A DNA stretch of 64,000 nt from an uncultured Aquimarina sp. (lineage in GTDB: Bacteria > Bacteroidota > Bacteroidia > Flavobacteriales > Flavobacteriaceae), in NCBI RefSeq assembly GCF_947492405.1, contig NZ_CANLMP010000008.1, positions 225,435 to 289,434 of the forward strand, in the 5' to 3' direction. Position 1 is the stretch's first letter, and the number at the start of each line of letters is the position of its first letter. Below the pieces are notes generated by a model. The model had not been told where the DNA came from. It ran no database searches and saw only the letters and a list, made by a program, of their open reading frames with translations. Shown here piece by piece: positions 8,660-24,955 of this stretch. A program made the translations under genes and the position numbers.

Positions 8660-8699
8660 TTCCTACTCTATTTAAAAGAGGCTTTTCAGATTCCGCCTT
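8660..8699 (-). promoter_or_regulatory. Repeated leader element, copy 2
   Basis: Minus strand AAGGCGGAATCTGAAAAGCCTCTTTTAAATAGAGTAGGAA; ends 22 nt upstream of the ATG at 8637. Confidence 0.7.
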
Positions 8700-8873
8700 T
8701 TAAATTTTGTTAGTAAACCATAAATCCATCCTTGATTGTACTCTTATTTGAAATATGTATTTCTGTGATGCTTTGTTTACTATCAAAATTTTGATGTAAT
8801 CAACCTAAATACTAGTGGCTACTTAATCGAATATGTGGTTTTGATTAATTACAATGTAAAGGTGTCTAAAATG

Positions 8874-8946
8874 TAAGCACGTGAAATGAATTTGTAGATA
8901 AGCGTGTAAATCGTAGTGATCAACGAACTATTAACGCACCTGAACG
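8874..8946 (-). promoter_or_regulatory. Helically phased direct repeats, candidate LytTR binding sites
   Basis: Minus-strand hexamers CGTTCA (8941-46), CGTTAA (8931-36), CGTTGA (8920-25), CGCTTA (8899-8904) at 10/11/21-bp spacing, between the LytTR gene and the cassette. Confidence 0.5.
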
Positions 8947-9019
8947 TATCGTCCAAAATTGTGTAATCTTTAATTACAAAAGGAAGTAGTTGGTAATAAG
9001 GAATAAAAAATAAAAACTA

Positions 9020-9754
9020 TTACTTTATAATGTTATGGATATTAGTGAATTGTTTTTTAAATCGATCACTTATGGTTATTTGAATTCCAGAGTTTAGATA
9101 AACAGCGTTTTCAGTAAGATTGATTTCTTTTATTTTGTCAAAATTGATTAAGCGTTTTCTGTGGATTTGCTCGAAGTTTTTATTAGAGAGCATTGTTTTA
9201 ATTTTGGACAAAGATAATCTCACAATATGCTTTTCATTTTCCGTAAAAAGTGAACAATAATTTTCTTCGACTTCAATATATTCTATGGTATCAAGAATTA
9301 TTTTACAGATTTTATGCTGCTTTTTTATGAACAGATAATCGGATGCTAAAACTCCCGTATTTGATCTCAAGGTATTTTCTTGCTGAAAATGTTGTTCAAT
9401 AGCTAATTCAATGGAGTATTGTAATTCTAAAGTGTTAAATGGCTTTAGGATATATGTAAATGGCATGGTCAATTTAGCCTTTTCAAAAACAGCCCTACTT
9501 TGCATATTGGTAAGAAATAAAAAAGGGATAGGATTATGAGTAGCTTGGATATGTTTTGCAAATTCAATTCCATCTAATTTCCCATCAATACTAATATCCA
9601 AAATCGCAAAATCGAAAAGAGAAGAAGCCAAAGCATCTTTAGCTTTTTTTAAAGTATTCACTAATGTAATATTATAATCTTTGGATAAAAGATTCATGAT
9701 ATTTTGCGAGTCAGAAATATTGTCTTCTAATAGAATAATATGAAGTGATTTCAT
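9020..9754 (-). CDS. LytTR family response regulator
   Basis: Receiver (LLEDN, AILDI, FLT, YILKPF) plus LytTR domain (YIEVEENY, FEQIHRKRLIN). Confidence 0.92.
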   Translation of the reverse strand: MKSLHIILLEDNISDSQNIMNLLSKDYNITLVNTLKKAKDALASSLFDFAILDISIDGKLDGIEFAKHIQATHNPIPFLFLTNMQSRAVFEKAKLTMPFTYILKPFNTLELQYSIELAIEQHFQQENTLRSNTGVLASDYLFIKKQHKICKIILDTIEYIEVEENYCSLFTENEKHIVRLSLSKIKTMLSNKNFEQIHRKRLINFDKIKEINLTENAVYLNSGIQITISDRFKKQFTNIHNIIK

Positions 9755-9756
9755 TT

Positions 9757-11463
9757 TTAAGTTTCTTTAATGAGTAGACCTATTGCTACTGTCATTCCTA
9801 AGTTGTCATTATTGCTTAACGTAAAGGTACCTTTGTTTTTTGTAATTAAAGTTTTACTTAACAGTAAGCCAAGCCCTAGACCTTTGGATCTATCTATTTT
9901 TTCAATAGTTAATACTTTATAATTATTAATTATATCTAAAACTTTAGAAGGCATTCCGGTACCAGAATCTCTAATCTTGAGAATACATTCTTTATTTTGA
10001 ATAGAAGTCTCTATAGTTATTTTGCCACCATTCGGTGTGTATTTAATAGCATTGTCAATTAAATTTCTAAAAGCAATTTTAAACAATTCTTTATCTAAAA
10101 ACACCTGTGCATTAGAGCTTAGATACTTAGTGTTTAGTTCAATGTTCTTTGCAGAAGCTAAAGGTCTAAAATCAAATAAAATAGCATCTACCAAAACTTC
10201 TATTGGATGTGTTTCTGGGTTAAAGAGCAATTGGTCACTTTGTTGTAAAGCCCAATTAAGAATATTATCTAATAATTGAGAAGTGCTTTTAGCGATAGAA
10301 GTATTTTCGTTATTCAAATTCTTGGCTGAATTAATATTATTGATTTCTAATAAATCAGATAATTTTTTATGATTATTTTTTAGCAGATTGATGGGGGTTC
10401 TTAAATCGTGAGAGATTACAGAAATTAAATAATTCTTTGTGTTATTTGATTCTTCTAATTGTTGTCTCTGTAAGTTTATAAATTTGTTTTGTTTTATTTT
10501 TATTCGATACAAGTAGAGAAGAGCTCCTAAAAAAACGGATATAATAATAAAAGCTATTACAAACAACTGTATACGTTCTTTTTGCTTTTTTGTAATTTGT
10601 TTCTGAGCAAAAACCTCTTTCTCTTTAACAGCGACAGCAATTTGTTTGTCTTTTTCTAAAAGTGCAGATATTTTATCTCTATTCCAAAGAGAATCTTTCC
10701 ATTTTATATACTCCGTATAATAGTCGACACTTTCTTTATAGCGTTTTCTGTTTTTCTCTACTACTGCCATGTTTTGAGCAGTATTTTGTTTTGCTGTAAT
10801 ATTCGAAAATAATTGAGCAACATGGTATGCTTCTTCAAAATATTGTATAGCTTCTGTGTCTTTATATTGCTCATAAAACAAGTTGCCTAAATCCAATTTC
10901 GCATAAATGATACTTAGTGTATCTTTTTCATTTTGAGATATTTTTAATTCTTTAAGCAGAAATTTTTCGGATTCTGGATACTTTTTTAAATGCAGGTAGC
11001 ATAATCCAATATTGTGATATGCTCTTTTTAATTTATTAGTACTTTGTATCCTATTGGATTTAATTACAGAATTATAATAATTCAAAGCTTTATTATATTC
11101 TCTATTCTCCAATGATATAGATGCAAGATTATAATCTACTAGATATTTATATGGAAATGAATTAGGAATACTTTCTAATTTTTCCAGAGCGATGGAATTG
11201 AATTTTTTTTCTAGCGCACTTACGCCATAAATATAATCTAAGTAATTCCTTATTTCAGTTGTGTCTGATAATTGATTATATGCTTGACTGCTATAGATAA
11301 AAGAAGAATCAATTTGTTGATTAAAATAGAAAATATGTGCTTTATGAAAACTTGTAATGTTCTTTTTACATATTTTTTCTATATTTTTTTTTAAATCAGA
11401 ATAATCCTTGTCTTTTTGCGCAAACAGACAGAAAGGGAATAAAAATAAAAGTAGTACTCTCAC
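9757..11463 (-). CDS. TPR-repeat sensor histidine kinase
   Basis: Signal-like N-terminus, TPR repeats (YHNIGLCY, DLGNLFY), TM helix, SHDLRTP H-box, NLIDNAIKYT, DSGTGM, GLGLGL. Confidence 0.92.
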   Translation of the reverse strand: MRVLLLFLFPFCLFAQKDKDYSDLKKNIEKICKKNITSFHKAHIFYFNQQIDSSFIYSSQAYNQLSDTTEIRNYLDYIYGVSALEKKFNSIALEKLESIPNSFPYKYLVDYNLASISLENREYNKALNYYNSVIKSNRIQSTNKLKRAYHNIGLCYLHLKKYPESEKFLLKELKISQNEKDTLSIIYAKLDLGNLFYEQYKDTEAIQYFEEAYHVAQLFSNITAKQNTAQNMAVVEKNRKRYKESVDYYTEYIKWKDSLWNRDKISALLEKDKQIAVAVKEKEVFAQKQITKKQKERIQLFVIAFIIISVFLGALLYLYRIKIKQNKFINLQRQQLEESNNTKNYLISVISHDLRTPINLLKNNHKKLSDLLEINNINSAKNLNNENTSIAKSTSQLLDNILNWALQQSDQLLFNPETHPIEVLVDAILFDFRPLASAKNIELNTKYLSSNAQVFLDKELFKIAFRNLIDNAIKYTPNGGKITIETSIQNKECILKIRDSGTGMPSKVLDIINNYKVLTIEKIDRSKGLGLGLLLSKTLITKNKGTFTLSNNDNLGMTVAIGLLIKET

Positions 11464-11473
11464 TATTAATATC

Positions 11474-11986
11474 TTAATTAGTCCCTGTTCTTACCGTAGT
11501 AACTGTGCCTCTTGATGTTTCTGGGTCTAAATTGTTATCGTGTACAATAATTGCCTCAACAGATTGTCCATAATTTTCTTTAATACTGTAATGAATTTTA
11601 ATGTGGAATAAATCATACGTCATTGGTTCTAATTCATTATAAGTTTCATAATCAATACCAAAATTTCTACATAAGATTATATCACTATCAGTAACTGTAG
11701 ATATTTCAGTCTCTATGGTGGATACTCCATTATAACTAAAGTATATTTTATTTTTAAGGTCCTTTGAAATTAATTCAAAACTACTTTGATTAGGGTTTTG
11801 AATAGTTTTAAAATTAACAGGGATATGAATAATAATATTTACAGCATACGTTCCAGAATCTTCACTATTATAGATATTTGCTAAGGGTATTCTTGAAACT
11901 TCCCATACATCAATTGGGTCTTTATTTATTTTTTTACAAAATTTAGGTTCAAATTCTAGCCCTGCAATAGTAATCTTGTTTCCCAT
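11474..11986 (-). CDS. Hypothetical protein with C-terminal DPETSRGTVTTV segment
   Basis: 170-aa ORF ending 10 nt before the kinase start; no signal peptide. Confidence 0.7.
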   Translation of the reverse strand: MGNKITIAGLEFEPKFCKKINKDPIDVWEVSRIPLANIYNSEDSGTYAVNIIIHIPVNFKTIQNPNQSSFELISKDLKNKIYFSYNGVSTIETEISTVTDSDIILCRNFGIDYETYNELEPMTYDLFHIKIHYSIKENYGQSVEAIIVHDNNLDPETSRGTVTTVRTGTN

Positions 11987-12384
11987 TCAAATAATTTTAG
12001 GTTTTAGTTGATAATTTAAATGTACTAAATATAAAACTGTAAAACCTTATTTATGAAGAAAATCATAAGGTAAAATATAATGAAATTTCCCCTAATTCTT
12101 TATTTAGTAGGTTCTTCAATTATCTCAAGTAAATAATTTAGATCACACTTTAAGAAATACTTTCGGTTTTCTTAATAATGTATTCAGAAACTATTAAAAA
12201 AAACATATTTCCGAAACGATACAGTATCGTAGTCTGGATCGGGATGGTTGGTTGGGGTAAATTAAAGTATGACTAACCAAATCTATTTTAAGAAGTTATA
12301 TCAGTTATCTTGCTTTTCAAGTTTATAACTCAGATCTATTAACTTCTCTTTGTAAATATTATCTAGTTAGTCAATACTATTTTA

Positions 12385-15300
12385 TTAAACTTTTTGATCT
12401 ATTACTTCAATTTTAGGAGGTATAAGTTTATAAATAACTGTACATACTAAAAATGCGAGCAATGTGGAGCTTATTAACCCTCCTATCAAAACAACTACCA
12501 ATCCTTCATATAGAGGATTTGCTTCGAGAACCAAAGGCGTTAATCCACCTATAGCGGTACTTGCGGTTAAGATTATTGGTATAAAACGTGTTTTTGCTGC
12601 TTTTTTGATAGCATCTTCTAAAGCCATGCCTTCAATTCTTAGTTGATTGGTAAAGTCAACAAGCAAGATGGAGTTTTTGATTTCAATTCCGATCAATGCG
12701 ATAAATCCAACAAGTGCCGTAAATGATAAAGGGTTTCCTGAGAGATATAATGCAATAAAAGCACCAATTAATCCTAAAGGAATAACAGACAATACAATTA
12801 AAGAACTTTTAAATGATCCAAATTCCAGTATGAGTATAAGTAAAAAAATGACACCAGCAATTAAAGCTGTAATTCCAATTCCATCAAAAGCATCTGATTT
12901 ATTTTCTAATTCTCCTGCAGCGACATAATGATACCCTTCCGGAAAATCAAATTGATCTAACTTTTCTATAATAGCAGCATTTAGTGCTGCATACGTATAT
13001 CCTTTTTTGGCGTATGCATTTATAGTAACATAGCGGGACTCGTCATAGTGTTTTATGGATTGTGTTTCTGTTTCATATTCTAGATCAGCTACCTGATTTA
13101 AGGGGATAGATGCTCCAGAAAAAGAATTCACATACAAGTTTTCTAAAACAGTAGGTGTTGTAAAGCGATCTCGAGCTAGTGTTACCGTAATGTTCATGTT
13201 ATCCTGACCTTCACCTGGAGAATATTCTGCCATGGGTAAGCCAGCAATTGCCATTCTAATTGTTTGATCTATTGTTGCCGTCTGAATTCCTAAAATACCA
13301 GCTTTCTCTTTATTAATTTTAAATTTGAGATTGGTTTTATTGGTAGCAACAGGATTTGTAATGTAGAGCGTACCAGGTGTTTCTTTTAATATGTTCTCTA
13401 CTTGAATGGATAGGTTTTGAAGCGTTTTTAAATCATCCCCAAAGACGCGAATAGCTACCGGAGCTTCAAAAGGAGGTCCTTGTTCATAATCAATTATTTG
13501 AATTTTTGCATTTGGATAATATTGGAAATCTTTACGAAGACTTTCAATAATATCTTCTTTTTCGTCATAAGAATCTACATCGGCTTGAACAAAAATTTGA
13601 GCAAAGTTAGTTTGTTCATTACGCTGACGCACATTATAATAAACTGTTGGATTTCCCTTACCTACATTAGTTGTAAAGTATTTTATATGCTTTGTTTCTT
13701 GTAATTTAGCTTCTACATATCTGGCTGCACGATCTGTTTCCAATAAAGTTGCTGTTTGAGGTAATTCAATATTAATTTGAAACTGAGGCTTTTCAGATTT
13801 CGGAAAAAGACTAAAACCAATTACCGGTATAAGCGCAAAAGATCCTAAAAGCATTCCTCCAGCAATTAGAAGTGTAACATAGGGTTTTCTTAGTACCCAA
13901 TCCAGAACTCTGGAATAATAGCTGTCTATAAATTTTTGTAGCACTCTTAAGAAAATATTTCCTTGAGATTTGGTATGTGTTTTTAAAATTTTATTTGATA
14001 GAAAAGGAACTACTGTTAAAGAGACCAACAATGAAGCTAAAACTGTTGTAACCACTGCCATGGGTAATCCTCTTATAAAATCTCCAGATCCGCCGGGTAA
14101 TTTTAAAATAGGCAAAAATGCTGCGATTAAGGTAAATGTCACTCCAATTACTGCCATAGAAATTTGTTTTACGGATTCTATGGAGGCTTCCATTCTAGAA
14201 GCACCCTCTCTTATATAGCGTTCAATGTTTTCTACAACAACAATAGCATCATCTACTAATATACCAAGCGCTACAATAAACCCCACAATACTTAATTGAT
14301 TTATAGAATACCCTAAGGCATCCATAACAAAAAGCCCAATAGATAGTGATAGAGGAATAGAAATCATTACTACCCAGGCGGATCTAAATCCTAAAGGTAA
14401 TAGCGTAATGGATACCAGAAGAATCGCAAATAAAAAATCTTTACCAAATCTGCTAAGACGTGTTTTTACGGTTTTTGATTGATCAAAATTAACTACCAAA
14501 TCCATAGATTTTGGTAGTTTTTCCTTAAAATCGTTAATTATTGGCCAGGCTGCATCACCAACTTTGAAAATGTTTTCTCCATCATTTTGGCTTGCAGAAA
14601 TAAGAACTGCGCGCTTGCCATTTAGGCGAGTAATATGTCGCTCTTCTTCATAGGTAGAAACTACATTAGCAATGTCTTTTAGTTTAATTATTTTTCCATT
14701 TGAAGCATATATTACTGTGTTTTTAATGTCTTCAATGCTTTCATAATCACCACTGGTTTTTACATTAAATTTTCTGGAATTGATATTAATTGCTCCTCCG
14801 GGAATATTTACATTTTCGCTTTGTAGGGCACCATAAACATACTGCAATGGAATATTTTGTTGCGCTAGTTTTTGTAAGTTTAATTCAACTCTAATTTCTT
14901 GTTCCGGATATCCCCAAGTTTCAACTTTTTTAAACCCTTTTATTTTTTCAAGCTGCTCCTCAAGTTGTTCTGCGGTTTTTTCTAAATCTGCATATGAAGC
15001 ATTTTCTGAGGTAATTGCCATCTGAAATATGTTGACATCAGATGAGTTAAATTCCTGAACTTCCAGTGCATATAAGTTTTCGGGTAATTCACTTCTTGCG
15101 GCATTAACTTCTCTAACAATTTCCTGATACTTTTCATCTTTATCCACCTCAAAAATGTATTCTACATCAATAACAGCTAATCCGTCTTCAATGGTAGTTT
15201 TAATTTTTTTAATATCATCGAGCTCATTAATCTTTCCTTCTAAAATATCGACTACTTGATCTTCAATATCTAAAGGAGAGGCTCCCGGATATATGGCAAC

Positions 15301-15444
15301 CACAAAGAATCTAGGAAAGTTAACCTCTGGATCTTCACCTCTTGGCATATTGAATAGAGAGTTTGCTCCAAGAGCAAGTATCGCTATTAAAATGACTACC
15401 GAAAAAGAGGTGTTTTTTACAAAAAAGGATGTTATGTTTTTCAT
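12385..15444 (-). CDS. RND efflux permease (AcrB/CusA superfamily)
   Basis: 1019 aa, 12-TM pattern, LGILVDDAIVVVENI, IKNSILLVDF, RFIPIILT. Confidence 0.93.
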   Translation of the reverse strand: MKNITSFFVKNTSFSVVILIAILALGANSLFNMPRGEDPEVNFPRFFVVAIYPGASPLDIEDQVVDILEGKINELDDIKKIKTTIEDGLAVIDVEYIFEVDKDEKYQEIVREVNAARSELPENLYALEVQEFNSSDVNIFQMAITSENASYADLEKTAEQLEEQLEKIKGFKKVETWGYPEQEIRVELNLQKLAQQNIPLQYVYGALQSENVNIPGGAININSRKFNVKTSGDYESIEDIKNTVIYASNGKIIKLKDIANVVSTYEEERHITRLNGKRAVLISASQNDGENIFKVGDAAWPIINDFKEKLPKSMDLVVNFDQSKTVKTRLSRFGKDFLFAILLVSITLLPLGFRSAWVVMISIPLSLSIGLFVMDALGYSINQLSIVGFIVALGILVDDAIVVVENIERYIREGASRMEASIESVKQISMAVIGVTFTLIAAFLPILKLPGGSGDFIRGLPMAVVTTVLASLLVSLTVVPFLSNKILKTHTKSQGNIFLRVLQKFIDSYYSRVLDWVLRKPYVTLLIAGGMLLGSFALIPVIGFSLFPKSEKPQFQINIELPQTATLLETDRAARYVEAKLQETKHIKYFTTNVGKGNPTVYYNVRQRNEQTNFAQIFVQADVDSYDEKEDIIESLRKDFQYYPNAKIQIIDYEQGPPFEAPVAIRVFGDDLKTLQNLSIQVENILKETPGTLYITNPVATNKTNLKFKINKEKAGILGIQTATIDQTIRMAIAGLPMAEYSPGEGQDNMNITVTLARDRFTTPTVLENLYVNSFSGASIPLNQVADLEYETETQSIKHYDESRYVTINAYAKKGYTYAALNAAIIEKLDQFDFPEGYHYVAAGELENKSDAFDGIGITALIAGVIFLLILILEFGSFKSSLIVLSVIPLGLIGAFIALYLSGNPLSFTALVGFIALIGIEIKNSILLVDFTNQLRIEGMALEDAIKKAAKTRFIPIILTASTAIGGLTPLVLEANPLYEGLVVVLIGGLISSTLLAFLVCTVIYKLIPPKIEVIDQKV

Positions 15445-15455
15445 CTTGTATTATT

Positions 15456-16508
15456 TTAGTTGAGGACTTTTACAGATACGAATTCATTTAGAAAACCTGA
15501 ACCTGACGTAACTACATTATCTCCGTTATGTATTCCTTTTGAAATCGCAATCCGTTCTTTATCCATAAATGCAATATCAACAGGTATCTTTTTAACTTTG
15601 CTACTACCATCCAAAACAAAAACAAACCCATTATTGCCATTTGCATCTACCAATGCTTCAATGGGTATTATCATATAGGATGACGCCGTTTGTGTTTTTA
15701 TTGCTGCGCTGGCAAACATTCCAGTAGCAAATTTGACACCTTTGGGATTTACTTTTATTTCAATAGCATAGGAACCATTAGTAGGATCTGCTCCTTGAGC
15801 CAGGCGAATAATTTTTCCTTCGAATGTTTTATCTGGATACGCGTCGATATGAATTGATGCTACATCTCCTTTCTGGAGTCTTGCCCAGTCTTTATCAGAA
15901 ACTCCAATTTCTAATTTCCATTCATCTTCTGTTGTGTCATTCATGAATAGGATAGGAGTTCCAGGATTTACTAACTCACCTTCATTCATCATTTTTCGAA
16001 CAATGGTACCATCACTTATGGCTCGTATTTCTGCATAATTTTGATTAAAAATTGCTATTTGTAGATCTTGTCTTGTGATATCCAAAAGGGTTGTCAGATC
16101 TTGAACTTGCTCCAAAGTGGCAGCGTCATCTTTATAAAGGCTATTTACTCGTTTTAAATCTCTCTTTGCTTTGTCATGAGCTTTCCTAGCCTGTGTTACT
16201 TTGGCATTTATTTCTGTTAGGTTTAGTCTGGCCAAGACTTGTCCTTTTCTTACTGATTCTCCTTCTTCAACGTATATTTTATGAATTACACCACCTATTT
16301 TAAATGATAGTGTTGCTTCTGTATCAGAGGACAATAGTCCAGAACCTTTTACAGGTAGTGAAACTGTTTCTTCCGATACAGTTGCTATTGATACAGCAAT
16401 TTCGTGGGTTCCAGAATCATCATTTGTATGATGATTATCTTTACAGCTTTGTAATAGTGTTGTTATTACCATAACCATTACCAGGTGTTTTAATTGTTTT
16501 GTTTTCAT
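15456..16508 (-). CDS. RND periplasmic adaptor (MFP), lipoprotein
   Basis: Lipobox LQSC, LSFKIGGVIHKIYVEEGESVRKGQVLARL lipoyl motif, alpha-hairpin. Confidence 0.9.
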   Translation of the reverse strand: MKTKQLKHLVMVMVITTLLQSCKDNHHTNDDSGTHEIAVSIATVSEETVSLPVKGSGLLSSDTEATLSFKIGGVIHKIYVEEGESVRKGQVLARLNLTEINAKVTQARKAHDKAKRDLKRVNSLYKDDAATLEQVQDLTTLLDITRQDLQIAIFNQNYAEIRAISDGTIVRKMMNEGELVNPGTPILFMNDTTEDEWKLEIGVSDKDWARLQKGDVASIHIDAYPDKTFEGKIIRLAQGADPTNGSYAIEIKVNPKGVKFATGMFASAAIKTQTASSYMIIPIEALVDANGNNGFVFVLDGSSKVKKIPVDIAFMDKERIAISKGIHNGDNVVTSGSGFLNEFVSVKVLN

Positions 16509-16520
16509 TTTTTTTGATTT

Positions 16521-17879
16521 TTAAAGCGCTAGAACTCTATCAAGTTCAGCTTGTTTTTTAAGTACATTATATTGTGCGATCACTAAACCCAATTGTGAAT
16601 TAGTGTATTGAACTCTGGCATCTAAAAACTCAACCAGTATGACAAGGTTTTCTTCGTATTTACGCTTGATGATTCTGAAGTTTTCCTTGGCACTTTCAAA
16701 GGCAGATTTTTTGGAGGAAACAACAGTGTTAGATGCCTCCAAATTGTAGTAGGCGTCTATAACTTGCAGTCTAATTTGTTGTTCCAATTCTTGATAACGT
16801 GTTTGATACTGTTCTACTTGTATTTTTGTTTTTGTCTTTTTTGCTTTATTCTTTAATCCTGTAAATAAGGGAATTGATACATTAAACTGTAGTACGCCAT
16901 AATCCTGATTTCCATCAAACTCATAACCAAAACCTTGATAACCAATAGAGCCACCAAGAGAGAATTTAGGTATCCAACTGTATTTTTCTATTTTATGAGC
17001 ATATGTATTAGCCTTGATAACATGATCTAGTTGAACTAGCTCTTCCCTTTCAGATAGGGCAGTAGTTTGTAGCGTGTTTAAATCACTAAATAGAAAACCT
17101 TCTGAAATTTTTAAAGACGTATCGATTCGTATTTGTTCATTGAGTTCTCTATTCAATAAGAAATTAAAGTAGCTTTTAGCAATATTGTGTTGTTGTACTG
17201 CTAATGCTCTATCGGCATATAATTGGTCTAGTTCGAATTGTGCTCTAAACACAACATCTTTGGTTGCTTTGTTGTTTTTTACTAATGCTTTATTAATACG
17301 TACTAATTCTTTTAATACAGTTTCTGAGCTATCATAAATATGTAATACTTCTTCGCTCTGGAGATAACTGTAATAACCTTGTTTGATTTCTTTTTTTAAC
17401 TCTTGTACATAAGCATCTTTTTTAGCCTTTTGAAAAGATGTAAGAGCAGATTTTGCTTTATAATTGAAATAAACATCTGTATTGAAAATGACTTGCTTAA
17501 ACTCAAGACGTGTATCATGAAAATCATTTGGTATAATTGGTTCTTCTACGTTTTGAAGATTTATAGGGAAATTTTCTGAACCCGTTAACTGATTTAATGT
17601 TGTATATACCGGATTTAGGAGATCACCTACAGGAATATCAATGGTTCTACCCCCATTAGCGATCATATATGATGCATTAAATGTAACATTAGGGAGGAAT
17701 AATGCCTTTGCTTGTTTTAAATCCTCAAAGCTTTGCGACAATAGTTGATGCTCTTGTTGTAAAGCTAAATTGCTTTTTAAGCCTTCTTCTACATAATCTT
17801 CTATAATAGATTGCCCTATGGATAGGTTAGTAATCATAAGAAAAAAGAGAAGGTTATACGGTGTGCTTTTAGTTCTCAT
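16521..17879 (-). CDS. TolC family outer membrane efflux protein
   Basis: Signal peptide, two OEP-like halves, FNVSIPLFTG, position in the RND operon. Confidence 0.9.
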   Translation of the reverse strand: MRTKSTPYNLLFFLMITNLSIGQSIIEDYVEEGLKSNLALQQEHQLLSQSFEDLKQAKALFLPNVTFNASYMIANGGRTIDIPVGDLLNPVYTTLNQLTGSENFPINLQNVEEPIIPNDFHDTRLEFKQVIFNTDVYFNYKAKSALTSFQKAKKDAYVQELKKEIKQGYYSYLQSEEVLHIYDSSETVLKELVRINKALVKNNKATKDVVFRAQFELDQLYADRALAVQQHNIAKSYFNFLLNRELNEQIRIDTSLKISEGFLFSDLNTLQTTALSEREELVQLDHVIKANTYAHKIEKYSWIPKFSLGGSIGYQGFGYEFDGNQDYGVLQFNVSIPLFTGLKNKAKKTKTKIQVEQYQTRYQELEQQIRLQVIDAYYNLEASNTVVSSKKSAFESAKENFRIIKRKYEENLVILVEFLDARVQYTNSQLGLVIAQYNVLKKQAELDRVLAL

Positions 17880-17913
17880 AATTATAGTATTAGATTGATA
17901 TTCATTGTTTTTT

Positions 17914-17932
17914 TAGTAAACAGTGTTTACTA
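17914..17932. promoter_or_regulatory. Palindromic operator (TetR candidate) upstream of the TolC gene
   Basis: TAGTAAAC-AGT-GTTTACTA. Confidence 0.75.
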
Positions 17933-17948
17933 TATGTGTAAAAAAATA

Positions 17949-18566
17949 TTATACTTTGGTCATTGTCAAAATTTCATGCATAATTTCTGATGATTCTTTA
18001 AGTAGCGTCAACCTGTTTTCTTCTGGATACATCTTCATTCTATTTCTAATTTTTAAGGATACCATGCCGTGCACATAAGACCATATGGAAAATGCTACTG
18101 CTTCGGCATTCATATTCTTGAAATAACCGTCTTTTATACAATCTGTAATGATATCTAATAAAATTTGATGGGCCGACATTCCAATATCCCATCCGGATTC
18201 TGTTTGGTCTGATTGCATTGGTTCATTAAGGATGAACATTAAATCATAATATGCAGGATGCTCAATTGCAAATTTTACATAGCGCTGGTTTAATTGTTTT
18301 AAACGATCTATTGGTTTTTTTATGGACAATACAGATTCGAATTCTTTTTTAAAAAGTGTAAAAGCCTTTACACTAATTTCATATAATAAAGCGTCTTTGT
18401 CTTTAAAATATAGATATATAGTACGCGGACTGTATTCAATCTCTTTAGCAATACTTCTAATAGTGGTCTTACTATAACCTAAAGTAGAAAATTGTCTTGT
18501 TGCCGTATCGAGAATTAATGCTTTTAACTCTTCTTTCTCCCTTTGTCTTCTTTCTGTTATACCCAT
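17949..18566 (-). CDS. TetR/AcrR family transcriptional regulator
   Basis: GYSKTTIRSIAKEIEYSPRTIYLYFKDKDALL HTH; WSYVHGMVSL C-terminal motif. Confidence 0.93.
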   Translation of the reverse strand: MGITERRQREKEELKALILDTATRQFSTLGYSKTTIRSIAKEIEYSPRTIYLYFKDKDALLYEISVKAFTLFKKEFESVLSIKKPIDRLKQLNQRYVKFAIEHPAYYDLMFILNEPMQSDQTESGWDIGMSAHQILLDIITDCIKDGYFKNMNAEAVAFSIWSYVHGMVSLKIRNRMKMYPEENRLTLLKESSEIMHEILTMTKV

Positions 18567-18592
18567 AGCTAAATTATTAAACGATGTAAATA

Positions 18593-18611
18593 TAGTAAAC
18601 GCTGTTTACTA
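18593..18611. promoter_or_regulatory. Palindromic operator (TetR autoregulation candidate)
   Basis: TAGTAAAC-GCT-GTTTACTA, same arms as 17914-17932, 26 nt upstream of the TetR ATG. Confidence 0.75.
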
Positions 18612-18729
18612 AAAAAACAAATTATCATATTTTAACATATTAGGATGGGTTTTAGGCGAGAGATATTCTTGAATATATAATTAATAAAGGAGGTAGTCCC
18701 TAATGTCTCGTCTTGAAATAGTATCACAT

Positions 18730-18760
18730 AAAAAAAGCCCGTAATACAAAACTACGGGCT
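18730..18760 (-). terminator. Intrinsic terminator downstream of the second RND operon
   Basis: Minus strand AGCCCGTA-loop-TACGGGCT followed by a T run. Confidence 0.75.
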
Positions 18761-18883
18761 AACTTAGATTTATAGCGATTGATCTGAAAAACTAGTGAGC
18801 ATAAATTAGTTATAAAAATCACACTATAAATCTACCGAAACAAACAAATCATATCAGTTCTTATATAAAATTATTGAAATACG

Positions 18884-18982
18884 AATTGAACTATTTTGAT
18901 TTCAGGCAAGGCATAAAATTTATTGATAGCCATAGCTATCGATCAATTTTGTAACGAAGCATCAAGTCAAAAGAGACAATTT
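18884..18982 (+). ncRNA. Flavo-1-like structured intergenic element
   Basis: GCAAGGC...AAAATT-tatt-GATAGC-cata-GCTATC-gatc-AATTTT...AACGAAGC extended hairpin; resembles my recollection of the Rfam Flavo-1 motif, not verified. Confidence 0.5.
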
Positions 18983-19017
18983 TATACAATTATTTCATAT
19001 GAGAAATGGTATCTTTA

Positions 19018-20328
19018 TTATTCTAATAAGATTCCTCCTAATTGAAGTAAAGTAATCTCAGCAATCTTTAAATCATATTTTGCTTTTGCATTATTATTTA
19101 AGGCATTGAATAAATTGATTTGTGCTTGCCTAAATTCTACAGCAGATACCTGACCAAGACTAAATTGCTTTTGTGTACGATTAAAATTCAGTTGGTTTGT
19201 TACTATATTATGATTTTCAGCTTTAAGAGTAAATTGCTTATTTAAGTAATCTTCATAGGCGTTATAAACTTCTGTTTTTAATTCTTCTTGAGCCTTATAA
19301 AGTTCAATTTCCCGATTTTGTTTTGTTATTTTAGATGTTCGAACTTTCGTTTTTGTTTTTCCTCCATCAAATAAATTCCACGATAAATTCAGTCCTAAAT
19401 TAACACCGTACGTTTCGTTATTAAGTGCGAATGAGGTTACGGGATTCATACTTTCGTTCCAATTATAACTTGCACTACCATTAATTTTAGGAAGAAATTT
19501 AGCTTTACTTATTTTGATATCTAACTCGCTCAATAATATGTTTTGCCTATTCAGTAAAGAGGTTACATTATTATTAATTGCATTTTGTAAGATGATATCT
19601 TCTTTAAGTGTTTTTTGAAAAATTACTGTGGTGTCTATAGCATATTCAGTAGTAATATCTCTACCTAATAGCAGATTTAGGTTGCGTTTTAGGTTTTTAA
19701 AATCTTTGTATGCAGAAGCATATGAAATACTATCATTATTAAGATCTACTTGTGCGTTTAGTTCATCTAATTTTGAGCCTTGTCCATATTTTAATTTCTT
19801 TTTGGTACGCTCTAGACGATCTTTAGAGTTTTTAATATTTAGAAGGAGGTTCTCGGTAATCTGTTTTTGATATGCTACATTATAATAAGTATCATATAAT
19901 GAGACAATGGTATTCTCTATTAATTGTCGCTCTTCAATTTTTTTAAGATTGAAATTTTCACTGTTTTTTTTATTATTGAATTTACGTTCCAATCCATCAA
20001 AAATTGTATACTCTGCAGTAACAGAAGCATTATAGGATTCTGTTATGGCATTGGTTATATTGGTATTACTACCATCAGAAAAAGTTACATTTTGAGCTTC
20101 ATCAGAGTAGTTGATTCCACCCGAAAGTGAAACGGTAGGCAGATAACCACTATTGAATACTCCTTTTTCAATATCAGAAACTTTTGTATTATTTTTTGCA
20201 ATCCGGAGATCATAGTTCTTTTCTACCGCAATTTTTATAGCTTCATCCACAGTAAGTACATTTTGTGAAACCACTGGAGAACTAATAAGAAAAACTAATA
20301 GTATTGTTAAAGTTTTAAAATTTTTCAT
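19018..20328 (-). CDS. TolC family outer membrane efflux protein
   Basis: Signal peptide, YTIFDG and WNLFDGG OEP motifs; overlaps the permease stop. Confidence 0.9.
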   Translation of the reverse strand: MKNFKTLTILLVFLISSPVVSQNVLTVDEAIKIAVEKNYDLRIAKNNTKVSDIEKGVFNSGYLPTVSLSGGINYSDEAQNVTFSDGSNTNITNAITESYNASVTAEYTIFDGLERKFNNKKNSENFNLKKIEERQLIENTIVSLYDTYYNVAYQKQITENLLLNIKNSKDRLERTKKKLKYGQGSKLDELNAQVDLNNDSISYASAYKDFKNLKRNLNLLLGRDITTEYAIDTTVIFQKTLKEDIILQNAINNNVTSLLNRQNILLSELDIKISKAKFLPKINGSASYNWNESMNPVTSFALNNETYGVNLGLNLSWNLFDGGKTKTKVRTSKITKQNREIELYKAQEELKTEVYNAYEDYLNKQFTLKAENHNIVTNQLNFNRTQKQFSLGQVSAVEFRQAQINLFNALNNNAKAKYDLKIAEITLLQLGGILLE

Positions 20329-23300
20329 TTGCTACTTTTTGTTCTATGATTGCACGTTCTACTTCTTCTCTTGTTGGTTTTTTACCTGTTCTTACATATT
20401 TTATATAGACTTTAACTGTATTAGAAAACGATAGAAAAACAGGAAGAATGAATAGGGTTAATATGGTTGCAATTGCTATTCCATAAGAAATAGCGATAGC
20501 CATTGGTATTAAAAACTGTGCCTGTAGGCTTCTTTCTAACATCAAAGGAGCAAGACCTGCTATGGTAGTTATCGAGGTCAAGAAAATAGCTCTAAAACGT
20601 GCCCTCCCGGTTTCATAAAGAGCATCCTCAAACTTTAATCCTTCTTTTAAAAATGAATTAAACTTATTCGTAAATACAAGACCATCATTTACTACAATTC
20701 CTATTAAACCAACAATACCTAAATATGACAAAATACTCATTGGAAAGCCGTGTAAGTAATGTCCCCAAGCCACGCCTATAATACTAAAGGGTATAAGTGA
20801 TAACAATATAAATGGCTGACTGAATGATCTAAATGTGAATACTATAACTACATATATCAGAAAAATAATGACAGGGAAAACAGCAGTTGCTGAGTCTGCA
20901 ATTTTATTAACTTCTCGATTTTGACCTTCTGCAGAAACTGTAACTTCAGGGTATTTATCTTCTATGAGTTTAGCAACTCTTGTTTGTAAATCTATCATAA
21001 TATCTGCAGCACTGGCTTTAGCATTATCAACATCCGCTTCTACAGTTACCTCTCGAATTCCGTTTAAATGATTAATGGCTACTTCGCCTCTTTCAATAGT
21101 ATATGACGCTACTTCTGATAACGGAACCCGTCCATTTGATGTACTGATTTCAATAGTATTGATATTATTGATTGTTGATCTGTTCTGTTTATCGTATCGT
21201 ACCCAGATTTTTACTTCGTCTTGACCTCGTTGAATTCGCTGTACTTCATTTCCATAGAAAGCATTTCTAACTTGTGTCATTAAACTATTATAACTTAAAC
21301 CCAACAATTGTGCGTTATCCTTCAGTTTCAAATTAATCTCTTTGATACCTTTTGGGCTTGAATCTGTAATATCCTTAACATTAGGGTTCTTATTTAATTC
21401 GGAGTATATGATCTCCTTAGCTTTATTAATCTGTTCAATATTTTTGCCTTGCAAGGATACCGAGATAGGCGCTCCACCAACATTAGCACCAGAATTAAAG
21501 GATAGTTTTTCGAGAATCGGAATATTACCCACAGAAGCTCGAATTTTATCTGTAATTTCTATAGAAGAAATAGAACGTGTTTCGCTAGGGGATAGGTTTA
21601 TTGTAATACTACTGGATGAACTACTTGGACCTATACGCTTCACGGTACCGGTAATATGAGATTCGTTTATCTCGTTTGGACCTAAATCTTTATTGATTTT
21701 CCAAACATTATTTTCTATGTAAGTGGCAATTGAATCTGTAACACGTTCGCTTGTTCCTTTGGGTGTGTTTATTGTTGCAACAATTTGATCACTTGCGTTC
21801 GTAGGAAAAAATGTTAATTTTATGATACCACTTGTGAAAGCGCCAATTGTAATTATGAACAAGAATAATATGATAGCAAAAGACAAAAACTTGTTCTGCA
21901 GACATTTTTTATAAACAGGACTGTATATCTTATCCCGTAAATAGTTCATAAATCTTTCTCCAAGTTTATTAAACTTACTTACTTTACTGATGTTCTTAAT
22001 ATCTTTAGAATGTGCTAAATGCGCGGGAAGAATCAATAACGCTTCAATTAGAGATACAAGTAAAGTTAAAGTAACTACAAGAGCAATATCTCCAAAAAAG
22101 TCACCTATCTGTCCATCTAAAAAGAAGAATACCGAAAATGCCAATATTGTAGTGGCAATGGCAGAAAGGATAGGTTTTAGTACTTCTAATGTACCATTTA
22201 CGGCTGCTTGTATTGGCGACTCTCCTTTTTCTCGTCGACTGTAGATGTTTTCGGCAATTACAATACCGTCATCAACGAGTATACCTATAACCAGAATCAT
22301 CCCAAACATGGAAAGCATATTTAAAGTAACTCCATAATTAGGTAAAAGAATAAACATCCCGAAGAAAGATATTGGTAATCCAAAAGCTACCCAAAATGCT
22401 ACACTAGGTCTTAAAAAGAAAGATAAAAGTATTAAAACCAGTAACATCCCAACGATGGCATTTTCTAGTAATAGCGAGATCCTATCTTCTATAAGGTCTG
22501 CAGTGTTGAAAGTTGATTTTAATTCAATATTTTTATTAGTATCATTAAACTCTTTTATATAGTTTTTTACACTTTCTACGCTACTAATTAAGTCTTCAGA
22601 ATTCGTATTTTTTAAGTCAATTTGTATTGCTTGTTCTCCATTGTAGAAAAGCTTATCGGGATTTTCACTAAAGGTGTCATTTAATTTGGCAATATCTCTA
22701 AGATATACTTTTGATCCATCTGTAGAGGATTTTACAACTATATCCTTAAGGTTATCTGCAAAATACTCTTTATTATTAGCCCTAATAAGAAATTCTTCAT
22801 CCTTAGTTTTTATGGAACCTCCGGAAATACTAATGTTAGCTTCTGCAATAGACTTTGCAATTTCTTCGAATGTCAGGTTATAATTTCTAAGTTTAGCTTC
22901 TGAAATAGAAATTTCTATTTCTTCATCAGGAAATCCTGTTAGCGAAATTTGCGAAATTCCATCAATCCTTAGTAAGTCATTTTCTATATCCTGTGCATAC
23001 TCTTTTAAAATTCGTAAAGGAATATCTTTACCAGTAATAATGAATGAAATAGCTGGTCTTGTTGGTTTAATTGTCTCTATGACCGGAGGTTCAATAGTTT
23101 TTGGAAATGAAGGAATTCTGTCGACTGCGTTTTTTACTTCATCTAATACCAAATTGATGTCAAAACCAGACAGAATTTCAATTGTTACAGATGCACTATT
23201 TTCTTGCGAAACAGAACTTACTCTGTCGACACCTATAATACCTTTAAGGTTTCGTTCAATTTTTTCTACGATACCTTCTTCAACCTCTTCAGGAGAGGCT

Positions 23301-23461
23301 CCTGGGTAAGTGACCGTAATCTGTATAGTTTTGGCATCAGATAAAGGGAAAAATGAGGAATTCATTTTTTGATACCCCAGAAAACCAAAAATTAAAAAGC
23401 CTACTATAAAAATATTTACAGCAACAGGATATTTTATAAAGTAACCAAGAAAGTTTTTCAT
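20315..23461 (-). CDS. RND efflux permease (AcrB family)
   Basis: 1048 aa, IGILVDDGIVIAENI, VVNDGLVF, RFRAIFLTSITT. Confidence 0.93.
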   Translation of the reverse strand: MKNFLGYFIKYPVAVNIFIVGFLIFGFLGYQKMNSSFFPLSDAKTIQITVTYPGASPEEVEEGIVEKIERNLKGIIGVDRVSSVSQENSASVTIEILSGFDINLVLDEVKNAVDRIPSFPKTIEPPVIETIKPTRPAISFIITGKDIPLRILKEYAQDIENDLLRIDGISQISLTGFPDEEIEISISEAKLRNYNLTFEEIAKSIAEANISISGGSIKTKDEEFLIRANNKEYFADNLKDIVVKSSTDGSKVYLRDIAKLNDTFSENPDKLFYNGEQAIQIDLKNTNSEDLISSVESVKNYIKEFNDTNKNIELKSTFNTADLIEDRISLLLENAIVGMLLVLILLSFFLRPSVAFWVAFGLPISFFGMFILLPNYGVTLNMLSMFGMILVIGILVDDGIVIAENIYSRREKGESPIQAAVNGTLEVLKPILSAIATTILAFSVFFFLDGQIGDFFGDIALVVTLTLLVSLIEALLILPAHLAHSKDIKNISKVSKFNKLGERFMNYLRDKIYSPVYKKCLQNKFLSFAIILFLFIITIGAFTSGIIKLTFFPTNASDQIVATINTPKGTSERVTDSIATYIENNVWKINKDLGPNEINESHITGTVKRIGPSSSSSSITINLSPSETRSISSIEITDKIRASVGNIPILEKLSFNSGANVGGAPISVSLQGKNIEQINKAKEIIYSELNKNPNVKDITDSSPKGIKEINLKLKDNAQLLGLSYNSLMTQVRNAFYGNEVQRIQRGQDEVKIWVRYDKQNRSTINNINTIEISTSNGRVPLSEVASYTIERGEVAINHLNGIREVTVEADVDNAKASAADIMIDLQTRVAKLIEDKYPEVTVSAEGQNREVNKIADSATAVFPVIIFLIYVVIVFTFRSFSQPFILLSLIPFSIIGVAWGHYLHGFPMSILSYLGIVGLIGIVVNDGLVFTNKFNSFLKEGLKFEDALYETGRARFRAIFLTSITTIAGLAPLMLERSLQAQFLIPMAIAISYGIAIATILTLFILPVFLSFSNTVKVYIKYVRTGKKPTREEVERAIIEQKVANEKF

Positions 23462-23463
23462 AA

Positions 23464-24576: not shown

Positions 24577-24582
24577 TTTGAT

Positions 24583-24945
24583 CTATAGTTTCATGTTCTT
24601 TCTCAAATGTTTTTTAATTTTTGGAGCTACATCGTCTTCATACTTTTCTAATTGTTCTTGAGACAATACTTTTTCCAGTTCAGCAGATTTTCCTTTTTTT
24701 ATTTCGTTCATCTCTCCAATTTTACCAAACATGCTTCCCTCTGCTTCCATTAAAACAACCATTTTCTCTGTATACTTTAGATTGATTATTTCTACTTTTT
24801 CAGTTTGTTCTTTAGTAAGATTCAACTCCTTAACCATCTGCTGTGTCTGATATTCAGACATTTCAGTTACATTCATTTTTTGCTGTGCAAAACTGTTTGC
24901 ATTACAAAAAAGAATTATTATTACTGTTAGAATGTTATTTTTCAT
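24583..24945 (-). CDS. Small exported helical protein (DUF4890/LTXXQ-like)
   Basis: Signal peptide ending SFA-Q; MVKELNLTKEQ and VLSQEQLEKY repeats. Confidence 0.6.
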   Translation of the reverse strand: MKNNILTVIIILFCNANSFAQQKMNVTEMSEYQTQQMVKELNLTKEQTEKVEIINLKYTEKMVVLMEAEGSMFGKIGEMNEIKKGKSAELEKVLSQEQLEKYEDDVAPKIKKHLRKNMKL

Positions 24946-24955
24946 ATAGTTTTTT

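Follow-up and report, generated by a model that had tools for sequence, protein, structure and literature searches.

A Conserved Protein Tail as the Probable Partner of a Periplasmic TPR Sensor Kinase in a Three-Gene Module of Bacteroidota

In the present work, we describe what is probably a dedicated three-component unit for signalling, inherited as a block, that consists of a small protein, here called p170, a TPR sensor histidine kinase, and a LytTR-family response regulator. The conserved C-terminal tail of p170 is probably what the TPR sensor of the kinase binds, because residues of the tail co-evolve with this outward-facing domain. The analysis started from the window, i.e., the whole 64,000-nucleotide stretch of an uncultured Aquimarina sp. 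to which all coordinates refer, and was extended to related loci in marine Flavobacteria and other Bacteroidota.

Results and Discussion

Organization and Conservation of the Module

In the window, the p170 gene (11986..11474, 170 aa) is followed after 10 nt by the gene of the sensor histidine kinase (11463..9757, 568 aa) and, after a further 2 nt, by that of the regulator (9754..9020, 244 aa), all on the minus strand. These open reading frames match exactly the trio of 170-aa protein, TPR kinase, and LytTR regulator named in a preliminary description of this DNA. The regulator has the Pfam domains Response_reg (E 2.4e-11) and LytTR (PF04397, E 1.4e-17). The presumed promoter region of the module covers the 398 bp upstream of p170 (11987..12384, minus strand). 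On the other side, a spacer of 382 bp (8638..9019, minus strand) separates the regulator from a neighbouring cassette coding for p133, a MACPF protein (514 aa), p113, and p79 (5737..8637), and the seven genes from p170 through p79 all lie on the minus strand. Contractile injection particles are encoded 21 kb away.

The family gene stands immediately upstream of an orthologous TPR kinase gene in 96/96 distinct modules (the complete loci examined), with the LytTR regulator third in 93 of them, so that the constant kinase neighbour, proposed as a check in the preliminary description, is found throughout. The modules span at least six named genera (Aquimarina, Tenacibaculum, Polaribacter, Flavivirga, Flavobacterium, and Chitinophaga) and two classes. 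The distance between the p170 and kinase genes ranges from -64 to +152 nt, many of the pairs overlapping. The flanking genes vary between loci: within neighbourhoods of 5-14.5 kb, no gene besides the trio recurs across non-syntenic loci, and no conserved exporter or processing enzyme, such as a C39-ABC transporter or AgrB, was found beside the module.

The p170 Family and Its Tail

p170 defines an unannotated family whose members are leaderless, 120-200 aa long, and predicted to fold as a beta-sandwich. The genome holds a single copy, and the homologues comprise 21 close ones and, in the wider set, 115 representative clusters. Neither Pfam nor NCBIfam has a family for p170, the Pfam search being likewise empty for 90 members and revealing no catalytic or binding motifs, and a profile search of the PDB sequences gave no match. 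The AF2 model (pLDDT 79) has ten beta strands. Compared with the PDB, its best Foldseek hit has an E of 0.06, none rising above noise, the best VIA-align Z of 4.0, to NigD-like lipoproteins, falls inside the noise range, and the ESM Atlas returned no usable match.

The protein was initially described as cytoplasmic-looking, which agrees with the lack of a signal peptide and of any N-terminal hydrophobic stretch, the N-terminus belonging to the predicted beta-sandwich. The accompanying idea of a classical peptide precursor is not supported, as the proteins are leaderless, 130-190 aa long, and predicted to be folded, and short or fused forms were not found (tail-bearing proteins of 30-92 and of 299-2000 aa were sought, in a weak search that required three shared 5-residue words).

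The p170 C-terminus reads ...NNLDPETSRGTVTTVRTGTN, and the alignments define a tail core D154-P-E-T-S158-R-G-T-V162-T-T164 (11495..11527, minus strand). Among 90 diverse homologues, the columns conserved to at least 90% are M1, P34, and Y133 together with D154, P155, R159, G160, and T161, such that the tail dominates, and this check of the preliminary description likewise came out in its favor. The mean column identity outside the tail is 17%, and in distant members the conservation is confined to the tail, DPxT[S/D]RGTxT. Within it, the anchors D, P, R, G, and T are near-invariant, while S158 and V162 are variable and co-vary with the kinase. The tail is predicted to be flexible (pLDDT 47-66 in the AF2 model), and its motif has no second occurrence when the 6.37-Mb genome is translated in all six frames. 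The body of p170 evolves faster than the kinase: the identities for the Flavivirga locus L050 are 68% for the kinase, 74% for the regulator, and 39% for p170.

The Sensor Domain of the Kinase

Pfam assigns TPR_12/TPR_2/TPR_1 to residues 111-215 of the kinase, HisKA to 343-403, and HATPase_c to 459-561. The N-terminus, MRVLLLFLFPFCLFA ahead of QKD, reads as a signal peptide, and one 22-residue hydrophobic helix precedes the kinase core. This single transmembrane helix (residues ~297-322 as read from the sequence; 10498..10575, minus strand) links the periplasmic stalk to the DHp domain. The signal peptide and the single transmembrane helix before the core place the TPR part outside the cytoplasm. 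Only ~20 residues connect the membrane helix to HisKA, and the kinase carries no further sensor domain in the cytoplasm.

In the AF2 model (pLDDT 84), residues 19-258 form 13 helices arranged in TPR-like pairs, after which one long stalk/TM/DHp helix runs continuously from 263 to 373. The periplasmic TPR-like sensor domain covers residues ~19-258 (10690..11409, minus strand). Foldseek with the full kinase model matched kinase cores only (HK853, WalK, and others, E 1e-14) and gave none to the TPR part.

Four motifs of the TPR domain are specific to the module, namely YHN[IL]G, DLxNLYY-x198-QY, x226-xxxx-NMAVVExNRK, and WxDS, and they are missing from 9 TPR kinase paralogues that are encoded in this genome without a p170 partner. 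The conservation of residues 181-280 equals that of the catalytic boxes, with Q199, A205, N231, E236, D257, and S258 invariant across the 96 kinases. Two variable positions are embedded in this region. E198 (10870..10872, minus strand) ends the A-helix 182-198 and is flanked by Y197, present in at least 90% of the kinases, and by the invariant Q199. Q226 (10786..10788, minus strand) is part of the A-helix 222-238, five residues before the invariant N231. In the AF2 model, the two positions belong to A-helices of consecutive TPR-like repeats. TPR A-helices line the concave ligand groove.

Co-Variation between Tail and Sensor

When the S/D state of the tail was compared by mutual information with every column of kinase and regulator, the deep phylogenetic split dominated the result, and event-based and independent-pair tests were used instead. 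The first relation concerns tail position 158 and kinase position 198 (HK198), which is acidic in 0/33 modules with a D tail vs 37/63 of the others (Fisher 1e-9). At least three independent switches of the pair were found, including that of L030, which is nested in a D-clade, and that of L050 relative to the window and L064. HK198 is the sole column of 942 in kinase and regulator that is consistent at all three S/D events.

The second relation involves the residue after RGT (RGT-x, tail position 162) and kinase position 226 (HK226), and is one of charge. Where the tail has E at RGT-x, HK226 is K or R in 12 of 13 modules. An acidic HK226 occurs in 3/8 modules with a K/R tail vs 1/88 elsewhere, and is found almost exclusively with K tails. 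HK226 ranks first of 679 columns for charge complementarity to RGT-x (15 complementary, 0 anti), and none of the regulator columns is as specific.

The co-variation rule came from 51 modules. In 45 that were retrieved later, both sides of the RGT-x relation with HK226 recur, E tails with K/R (7/8 vs 11/37, Fisher p 0.004) and K/R tails with an acidic residue (3/6 vs 1/39, p 0.005). Phylogenetically independent pairs gave ~11 concordant and 0 discordant cases over three relations, numbers to be read with the fact that the pattern was partly found post hoc and that the independent events are few, single sign tests reaching p 0.06-0.13. One genome (G134) carries three co-resident modules with V, E, and K at RGT-x, as would be expected for insulated channels. 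Co-variation of this kind between tail and TPR residues is what one would expect of a ligand and its receptor.

The location of the co-varying columns also bears on an alternative in which p170 is a cytoplasmic accessory regulator (an anti-kinase, phosphatase adaptor, or connector) acting on the DHp/CA part or on the LytTR regulator, the co-variation with the TPR domain being indirect or due to chance. The lack of an export signal on p170 and its translational coupling with the kinase are in favor of this alternative, for which KipI, Sda, FixT, and PII-NtrB are precedents. However, no regulator column changed at both nested S/D switches, and the single cytoplasmic kinase column that did so, 418, does not follow the clade pattern. 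Moreover, the five kinase columns that rank highest for charge complementarity all lie in the periplasmic part, the regulator columns lack specificity, and the kinase offers no additional cytoplasmic sensor domain. We consider the alternative unlikely.

Proposed Mode of Action

The analysis shows how the genes are linked, how the family is built, how the sensor is oriented, and how tail and kinase co-vary, whereas physical binding, release, the direction of regulation, and the target genes are inferred. The flexible tail DPETSRGTVTT would dock in the A-helix groove of the periplasmic TPR-like domain, where the invariant anchors (D-P, T, R-G-T, and T) would meet the kinase motifs YY-x-QY and NMAVVE-NR, and the variable S158 and V162 would face the variable E198 and Q226, conferring specificity on the pair. 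Binding would alter the output of the kinase through the long stalk/TM/DHp helix, and the signal would pass to the LytTR regulator. Lacking an export signal, p170 or a fragment bearing the tail would have to enter the periplasm independently of Sec, most simply upon release from lysed siblings, in which case the tail would be a cue derived from self or kin. The proposal as a whole, comprising a dedicated unit, docking of the tail in the TPR groove, non-Sec release, and signalling to the LytTR regulator, is one that we favor on balance, with modest confidence.

Two observations speak against reading the tail as a ligand. One is that p170 and the sensor domain are predicted to be separated by the inner membrane, since p170 lacks a signal peptide and the locus has no conserved exporter or processing enzyme. 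The other is that the tail core is near-invariant across genera, unlike typical strain-specific pheromones. In addition, gene overlap and translational coupling point more to a stoichiometric partner than to a signal that diffuses. The interpretation in the preliminary description is supported in part: the conservation of the tail, the linkage in all modules, and the co-variation with the TPR domain argue for its idea that p170 or its C-terminal peptide is the kinase ligand, while the form of a peptide precursor does not fit a leaderless protein predicted to be folded. The circuit may, as was also suggested there, sense cell density or lysis.

A more far-reaching version of the proposal is protein-borne signalling between cells, or kin-lysis signalling, in Bacteroidota. 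The tail of the leaderless cytoplasmic protein would be freed when siblings lyse, for instance upon release of contractile injection particles or under attack, and would be sensed by the periplasmic TPR kinase of the survivors; the two residue pairs would act in a pherotype-like manner, and the LytTR regulator would switch on locally variable, signal-less toxin-like genes. We regard this version as rather doubtful.

The stoichiometry suggested by the gene overlap could also mean that p170 is a constitutive co-sensor subunit, the tail anchoring it to the TPR groove and the fast-evolving beta-sandwich binding an environmental ligand, in the way of LuxP for LuxQ, TorT for TorS, and ExoR for ExoS. 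The linkage and co-variation data fit this arrangement equally, overlapping genes point to stoichiometric co-expression, and the p170 body diverges much faster than the kinase (39% vs 68% identity in L050). Nevertheless, it meets the same export problem, known periplasmic co-sensors having signal peptides, and the beta-sandwich has no recognizable ligand-binding fold, which makes it quite unlikely in our view. A role of p170 outside signalling, as an output or cargo simply transcribed along with the other genes (e.g., a protein for stress or storage), would fit its lack of catalytic or binding motifs but is very improbable, as order and adjacency are kept in 96/96 modules while other neighbours vary, and the invariant tail and its co-variation with the kinase would be left unexplained.

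The MACPF Cassette and the Regulatory DNA

The 514-aa product of the cassette matches MACPF (PF01823) at residues 97-290 with E 5.7e-19 and 69.5 bits, the gathering cut-off being 21.5 bits. It is assigned to the MACPF family by Pfam, and pore formation is predicted; no PDB sequence is related to it at E 0.01 or better. None of p133, the MACPF protein, p113, and p79 has a signal peptide. An aegerolysin-like nature of p133 was considered and is not supported by Pfam or by the PDB sequence search. Other modules have signal-less toxin-like genes of their own, coding for PixA, PI-PLC, a C58 peptidase, and lysozyme.

It had been suggested at the outset that the module controls production of the pore-forming toxin. 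This arrangement is not conserved: no MACPF homologue adjoins the module in the ~56 loci for which 14.5 kb of surrounding sequence was read, and the only cassette homologue beside another module is a relative of p113, in L034. The cassette is local context, its link to the module being seen in this genome only.

The spacer between regulator and cassette contains no terminator-like site, and five CG[TA]T words cluster in it at 8906-8953. The window yielded no LytTR box, and in the search for LytTR-type direct repeats, those in its three intergenic regions stayed within the shuffle null. Two other loci, L035 and L041, contain 21-bp repeats. A sigma-70 promoter scan, a method unsuited to Bacteroidota, remained at background. 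The Bacteroidota -7 box TAnnTTTG occurs only once, 299 nt upstream of p170, and no promoter element was identified in the 398-bp region.

Comparison with Known Systems

The module resembles the Gram-positive pheromone operons (ComC-ComD-ComE, BlpC-H-R, PlnA-B-CD, and Agr) in that a signal gene, a kinase gene, and a LytTR regulator gene follow one another in a tight unit, the regulator coming after the kinase in 93/96 modules. It also shares with them the frequent vicinity of toxin or bacteriocin-like genes and the pairing of variable ligand positions with variable receptor positions. However, the module belongs to Bacteroidota and differs from ComCDE and Agr in its components. The short (<~60 aa) precursor with a GG leader or of AgrD type is replaced by p170, with 170 aa and a predicted fold, and no exporter or processor of the ComAB or AgrB type recurs within 5-14.5 kb of the modules. 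The kinase is of the HisKA type, with a signal peptide, a periplasmic TPR domain, and one transmembrane helix, rather than a polytopic HPK10 kinase with 5-8 such helices.

As in the RRNPP systems (Rap-Phr, NprR-NprX, PlcR-PapR, and PrgX), the C-terminus of a linked product is proposed to bind to a TPR domain, and the R-G core of the p170 tail may recall the Phr pentapeptides. The RRNPP receptors, however, are cytoplasmic effectors (transcription factors or phosphatases) that bind re-imported peptides, whereas the TPR domain of the module is the extracytoplasmic input of a kinase. Furthermore, RRNPP ligands derive from short, exported pro-peptides, and such systems are known only from Firmicutes. 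The p170 tail is conserved and co-varies with the TPR domain, but its carrier is a leaderless protein predicted to be folded.

The kinase shares its architecture with the FimS/FimR-type kinases of Porphyromonas gingivalis, with a signal peptide, periplasmic TPR, transmembrane helix, and HisKA-HATPase. HK_Porph_FimS (NF053520) is the best NCBIfam match of the kinase (111.3 bits, E 3.9e-32), a score that, against the equivalog cut-off of 600 bits, indicates a shared architecture and not an orthologue. We know of no p170-like partner or ligand described for FimS. In LuxP-LuxQ, TorT-TorS, and ExoR-ExoS, as in our proposal, a separate protein binds the periplasmic part of a kinase and sets its activity; LuxP, TorT, and ExoR, however, have signal peptides and known folds (periplasmic binding proteins, Sel1/TPR), whereas p170 is a leaderless, predicted beta-sandwich and the TPR domain is on the kinase. 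For the binding mode itself, Hop with the EEVD of Hsp70/90 and PEX5 with PTS1 accommodate a flexible C-terminal tail in a TPR groove by means of conserved Asn, Lys, and Arg residues on the A-helices, a likeness by analogy only, both being eukaryotic cytosolic proteins.

Implications

Our search of the literature found nothing on a module of p170, TPR kinase, and LytTR regulator. To our knowledge, hardly any autoinducer system based on a peptide or protein has been described in Bacteroidota (the same search found none), and we know of no ligands for their abundant periplasmic-TPR kinases. The present module supplies a genetically linked candidate ligand for such a kinase and predicts two contacts, one between tail residue 158 and kinase residue 198, the other between tail residue 162 and kinase residue 226. 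Tenacibaculum, Flavobacterium, and Aquimarina are relevant to fish disease and algal interactions. If the release of p170 depends on lysis, the module would constitute a molecularly defined "danger signal" circuit.

Organization of the module and topology of the kinase

The gene of the 170-aa leaderless protein p170 (11986..11474, minus strand; C-terminal end NNLDPETSRGTVTTVRTGTN) is followed on the same strand by a 568-aa ORF for the kinase (11463..9757), which starts 10 nt past p170, and by a 244-aa ORF for the regulator (9754..9020), which starts 2 nt past the kinase. In Pfam, the kinase gives TPR_12, TPR_2, and TPR_1 matches at residues 111-215, HisKA at 343-403, and HATPase_c at 459-561, and the regulator gives Response_reg and LytTR. 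The top NCBIfam model for the kinase, FimS of P. gingivalis, scores 111 bits where the cut-off is 600, the two proteins having a common architecture but not being orthologues.

The N-terminus of the kinase reads MRVLLLFLFPFCLFA followed by QKD, with the predicted cleavage site between the two. In Bacteroidota, a Gln just past the cleavage site marks exported proteins (the "Q-rule"), and the Gln at this position fits the rule. The kinase has a single 22-residue hydrophobic helix, at about 297-322. In the AF2 model, built from 96 orthologues (pLDDT 84), residues 19-258 form 13 helices in TPR-like A/B pairs, and a continuous helix (263-373) forms the stalk, crosses the membrane, and continues as DHp helix 1 up to a standard catalytic domain; Foldseek matches this core to HK853, WalK, and others (E 1e-14). 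From the signal-like start, the one hydrophobic helix, and the modeled layout, the TPR sensor domain is predicted to be extracytoplasmic. The ORFs, the Pfam matches, and the AF2 model bear out the preliminary description of the trio in all details.

The conservation of kinase residues 181-280 equals that of the H, N, and G boxes among the first 51 orthologues. Across 96 kinases, the periplasmic residues Q199, A205, N231, E236, D257, and S258 are invariant, and the near-invariant ones include Y196, Y197, Y200, D202, M232, A233, V235, N238, R239, and W255. These motifs are absent from nine paralogous TPR kinases of the same genome, which have no p170 partner and carry one extra repeat.

To judge from ORF size, order, and appearance of the sequence, the module is immediately preceded on its own strand by two RND-type efflux operons (12385-27509, minus strand), with pumps of 1019 and 1048 aa, each accompanied by an adaptor and an outer-membrane factor. 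A probable TetR-like regulator (17949-18566) lies among these genes.

The p170 family and its tail

A word-indexed search returned 21 close homologues of p170 (161-185 aa), all unnamed or "hypothetical", in which conservation runs over the full length, and the p170 profile matched 115 clusters among 1.84 billion representatives. Column identity averages 17% when 90 diverse members are aligned, and only M1, P34, and Y133, together with five residues of the tail (D154, P155, R159, G160, and T161), are at least 90% conserved. In distant members (120-150 aa), the profile match is restricted to the last ~70 positions, and these still terminate in DPxT[S/D]RGTxT, followed by 3-12 variable residues. 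The searches brought up no tail-bearing proteins of 30-92 aa or of 299 aa and above. p170 is single-copy in its own genome, and the tail pattern occurs once only in the six-frame translation of its 6.37 Mb.

The predicted fold of p170 is a ten-stranded beta-sandwich (pLDDT 79) with the N-terminus inside the fold and a poorly ordered tail (pLDDT 66, 55, and 47 over the last three blocks). Comparison of this model with PDB folds stayed within noise (Foldseek best E 0.06; VIA-align best Z 4.0), PDB sequences and the ESM Atlas yielded no relative, and Pfam gave no match over all 90 members. Judged from these sequence and fold comparisons, p170 founds an undescribed family that is defined by its tail.

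Linkage and distribution

The order p170-kinase-regulator is kept in six other genomes of the genus Aquimarina, none of which has the MACPF cassette found in the window, and the trio recurs in thirteen divergent modules from ten further Flavobacteriaceae genomes. A pattern scan with one genome per species gave 38 loci, from Aquimarina, Polaribacter, Flavivirga, Tenacibaculum, Flavobacterium, and Chitinophaga (another class), with the family gene adjoining an orthologous kinase in each; family-wide and genus draws added 46 complete loci, all with the trio. After removal of duplicates, 96 distinct kinases were aligned. The linkage holds in every locus sampled, with gaps between family gene and kinase of -64 to +152 nt and many overlaps. 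The LytTR regulator comes next in 93 of the 96 modules; the exceptions are an absent adjacent regulator in L040, L073, and L077 (L-numbers denote loci in other genomes), and in L054 the kinase is split. The remaining neighbors vary among non-syntenic loci.

The split kinase of L054, the second module of Flavivirga jejuensis, consists of two ORFs of 227 and 256 aa and is possibly a pseudogene. A 516-aa protein adjoins this module, and its N-terminus, MSLTLKTPGVYIEE, resembles a contractile sheath by appearance of the sequence. A family of ~205-aa proteins with no Pfam match (MNEIKLNFINQSADTNNS and MADIKLNLINRSNDRNNSS at their starts) abuts the module on its upstream side in two different classes, at L048 (Aquimarina muelleri) and L074-L076 (Chitinophaga).

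The distribution is patchy: the module is present in 8 of 41 relatives, 21 of 400 Flavobacteriaceae (from 19 of 302 genera), and 29 of the 151 species sampled in one large genus, and a phylum-wide draw found it in none of 373 genomes from other families.

Co-variation of the tail and the TPR domain

Ahead of the invariant R-G, the tail has either S or D. Position 198 of the kinase, flanked by Y197 (at least 90% of kinases) and the invariant Q199, is acidic in none of the 33 D-tail modules versus 37 of the 63 others. Raw mutual information is uninformative here, because the S/D state tracks a deep split. Two nested switches are found, namely L030 (tail S, kinase E) within a Tenacibaculum D/N clade, and the window together with L064 (tail S, kinase E) versus the sister L050 (tail D, kinase Q). 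Five of 942 kinase and regulator columns change in both events, and only 198 does so in the direction of the deep split.

The residue after R-G-T is mostly V, and also E, K, T, I, S, or R; one genome carries three modules, with V, E, and K. All five E tails of the first set have K or R at kinase position 226, with a within-clade contrast (L031 and L033 versus L032 and L036). Among 45 modules fetched after this observation, K or R occurs at 226 in 7 of 8 E tails versus 11 of 37 other tails (Fisher 0.004), and E occurs in 3 of 6 K/R tails versus 1 of 39 (Fisher 0.005), the latter pairing being absent from the first set. Over the 96 modules, position 226 ranks first of 679 kinase columns for charge complementarity (15 complementary, 0 anti), the top five columns are all periplasmic, and no regulator column has comparable specificity.

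A tree built on the 96 kinases was used to draw phylogenetically independent pairs. The relation of tail E to basic 226 gave 7 pairs, 4.8 in the expected direction (median p 0.06), tail K/R with acidic 226 gave 5, 2.3 in the expected direction (median p 0.5), and tail D with non-acidic 198 gave 4, 3.8 in the expected direction (median p 0.125), with 0 opposite in each case. Pooled, the three sign tests amount to about 11 concordant and 0 discordant pairs, every single test being underpowered.

In the AF2 model, residue 198 ends the A-helix 182-198, and 226 lies within the A-helix 222-238 of the next repeat. The A-helices of TPR solenoids line the concave ligand groove. The four-residue spacing of tail positions 158 and 162 fits an extended peptide across two adjacent repeats.

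Neighboring toxin-like genes and putative regulator sites

Downstream of the regulator, after a 382-bp spacer, the minus strand carries p133 (8637..8236), a 514-aa protein (8173..6629) with a MACPF match of 69.5 bits (cut-off 21.5), p113 (6406..6065), and p79 (5976..5737), and the gene run ends after p79 at a bidirectional terminator-like hairpin (5691-5730). Pfam gave no match for p133, p113, and p79, which have no family, and all four proteins lack signal peptides. The preliminary description had the module controlling this cassette. The shared strand and the absence of a terminator-like site in between agree with this; however, no MACPF, p133, or p79 homologues lie beside any other module read with 14.5 kb of context, and the spacer shows neither repeats exceeding the shuffle null nor a Bacteroidota promoter box. 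For these reasons, the module controlling the MACPF genes is a local possibility of low probability and not a trait that is conserved with the module. The one cassette relative seen elsewhere is that of p113 (34% identity), which L034 carries on the downstream side of the regulator and beside a DUF1842 protein.

Many modules adjoin differing toxin-like or lytic genes without signal peptides: L035 has PixA (an inclusion-body protein), a PI-PLC-X phospholipase, and a weak leukocidin-like protein, L037 has a C58 (YopT-like) peptidase, L042 has a GH25 lysozyme, and eight loci (L030, L034, and six further) have DUF1842 proteins, two of them recognized by Pfam and the rest by BLAST clustering.

Near-perfect direct repeats with a 21-22 bp period, AGAGTCTTGTGCTA in two to three copies, TTCCATTCACAAC in three, and TTCATGACAAT in two, occur at approximately L035:14500-14560, L035:2990-3040, and L041:5140-5175. 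Those of L035 lie upstream of the family gene and also between the regulator and the phospholipase/leukocidin-like genes, and that of L041 lies downstream of the regulator. A 21-bp period is typical of LytTR sites. In the window, a cluster of five CG[TA]T words, all oriented alike and about 10-12 nt apart, occupies 8906-8953 (minus strand), 66-113 nt past the regulator stop codon, where the GC content is roughly 30%; the words could form an array of binding sites.

A complete extracellular contractile injection system (eCIS) locus was recognized with Pfam at 33383-64000 (plus strand), about 21 kb from the module, with Pvc16_N, tail sheath, CIS tube, VgrG-like spike, baseplate J, CIS tape measure, and eCIS core with OmpA. 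Neighbors of the eCIS without signal peptides, the MACPF cassette for one, are possible payloads. In the large genus of 151 species, the tape-measure gene is present in 12 of 29 module-bearing species versus 11 of 122 without the module (12 with both, 17 module only, 11 eCIS only, 111 neither), a co-occurrence above expectation, but between loci that lie at a distance from each other and with genome size and kinship as confounders.

Role of p170

We assign p170, with high confidence, the role of a dedicated third component in the signaling system. The family anatomy, the linkage, the kinase motifs, and the co-variation are as expected if the tail is bound by its cognate kinase in the periplasmic TPR groove, and with moderate confidence we take the tail to be the ligand of that domain. 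The conserved anchors of the tail would meet the conserved receptor motifs of the kinase, and the two specificity positions of the tail would face the two kinase positions. The tail as ligand is the core of the inference in the preliminary description, and the two checks suggested there, on tail conservation and on linkage to TPR kinases, both speak for it. The data are accounted for equally well by p170 being a docked co-sensor with the tail merely as its anchor, a rival reading that faces the identical export problem. The second rival, a cytoplasmic accessory regulator, would suit the absent leader but is at odds with the location of the co-varying residues.

For the tail as ligand, leaderless p170 must meet a periplasmic domain, and release by lysis would be the simplest route, one that is compatible with the neighborhood of the module; lysis or density sensing by the module is given low confidence. 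Unlike a classical pheromone, p170 is a folded protein carrier without a leader, the module locus has no exporter or maturation enzyme, the module genes are translationally coupled, and the core of the tail hardly varies between genera. We place the module outside the ComCDE/Agr and RRNPP families because defining features of these, when tested, were absent. A literature search found no paper on the module, which is real, conserved, and undescribed, and which, as far as its sequences tell, would work like a signal-kinase-LytTR three-component system.
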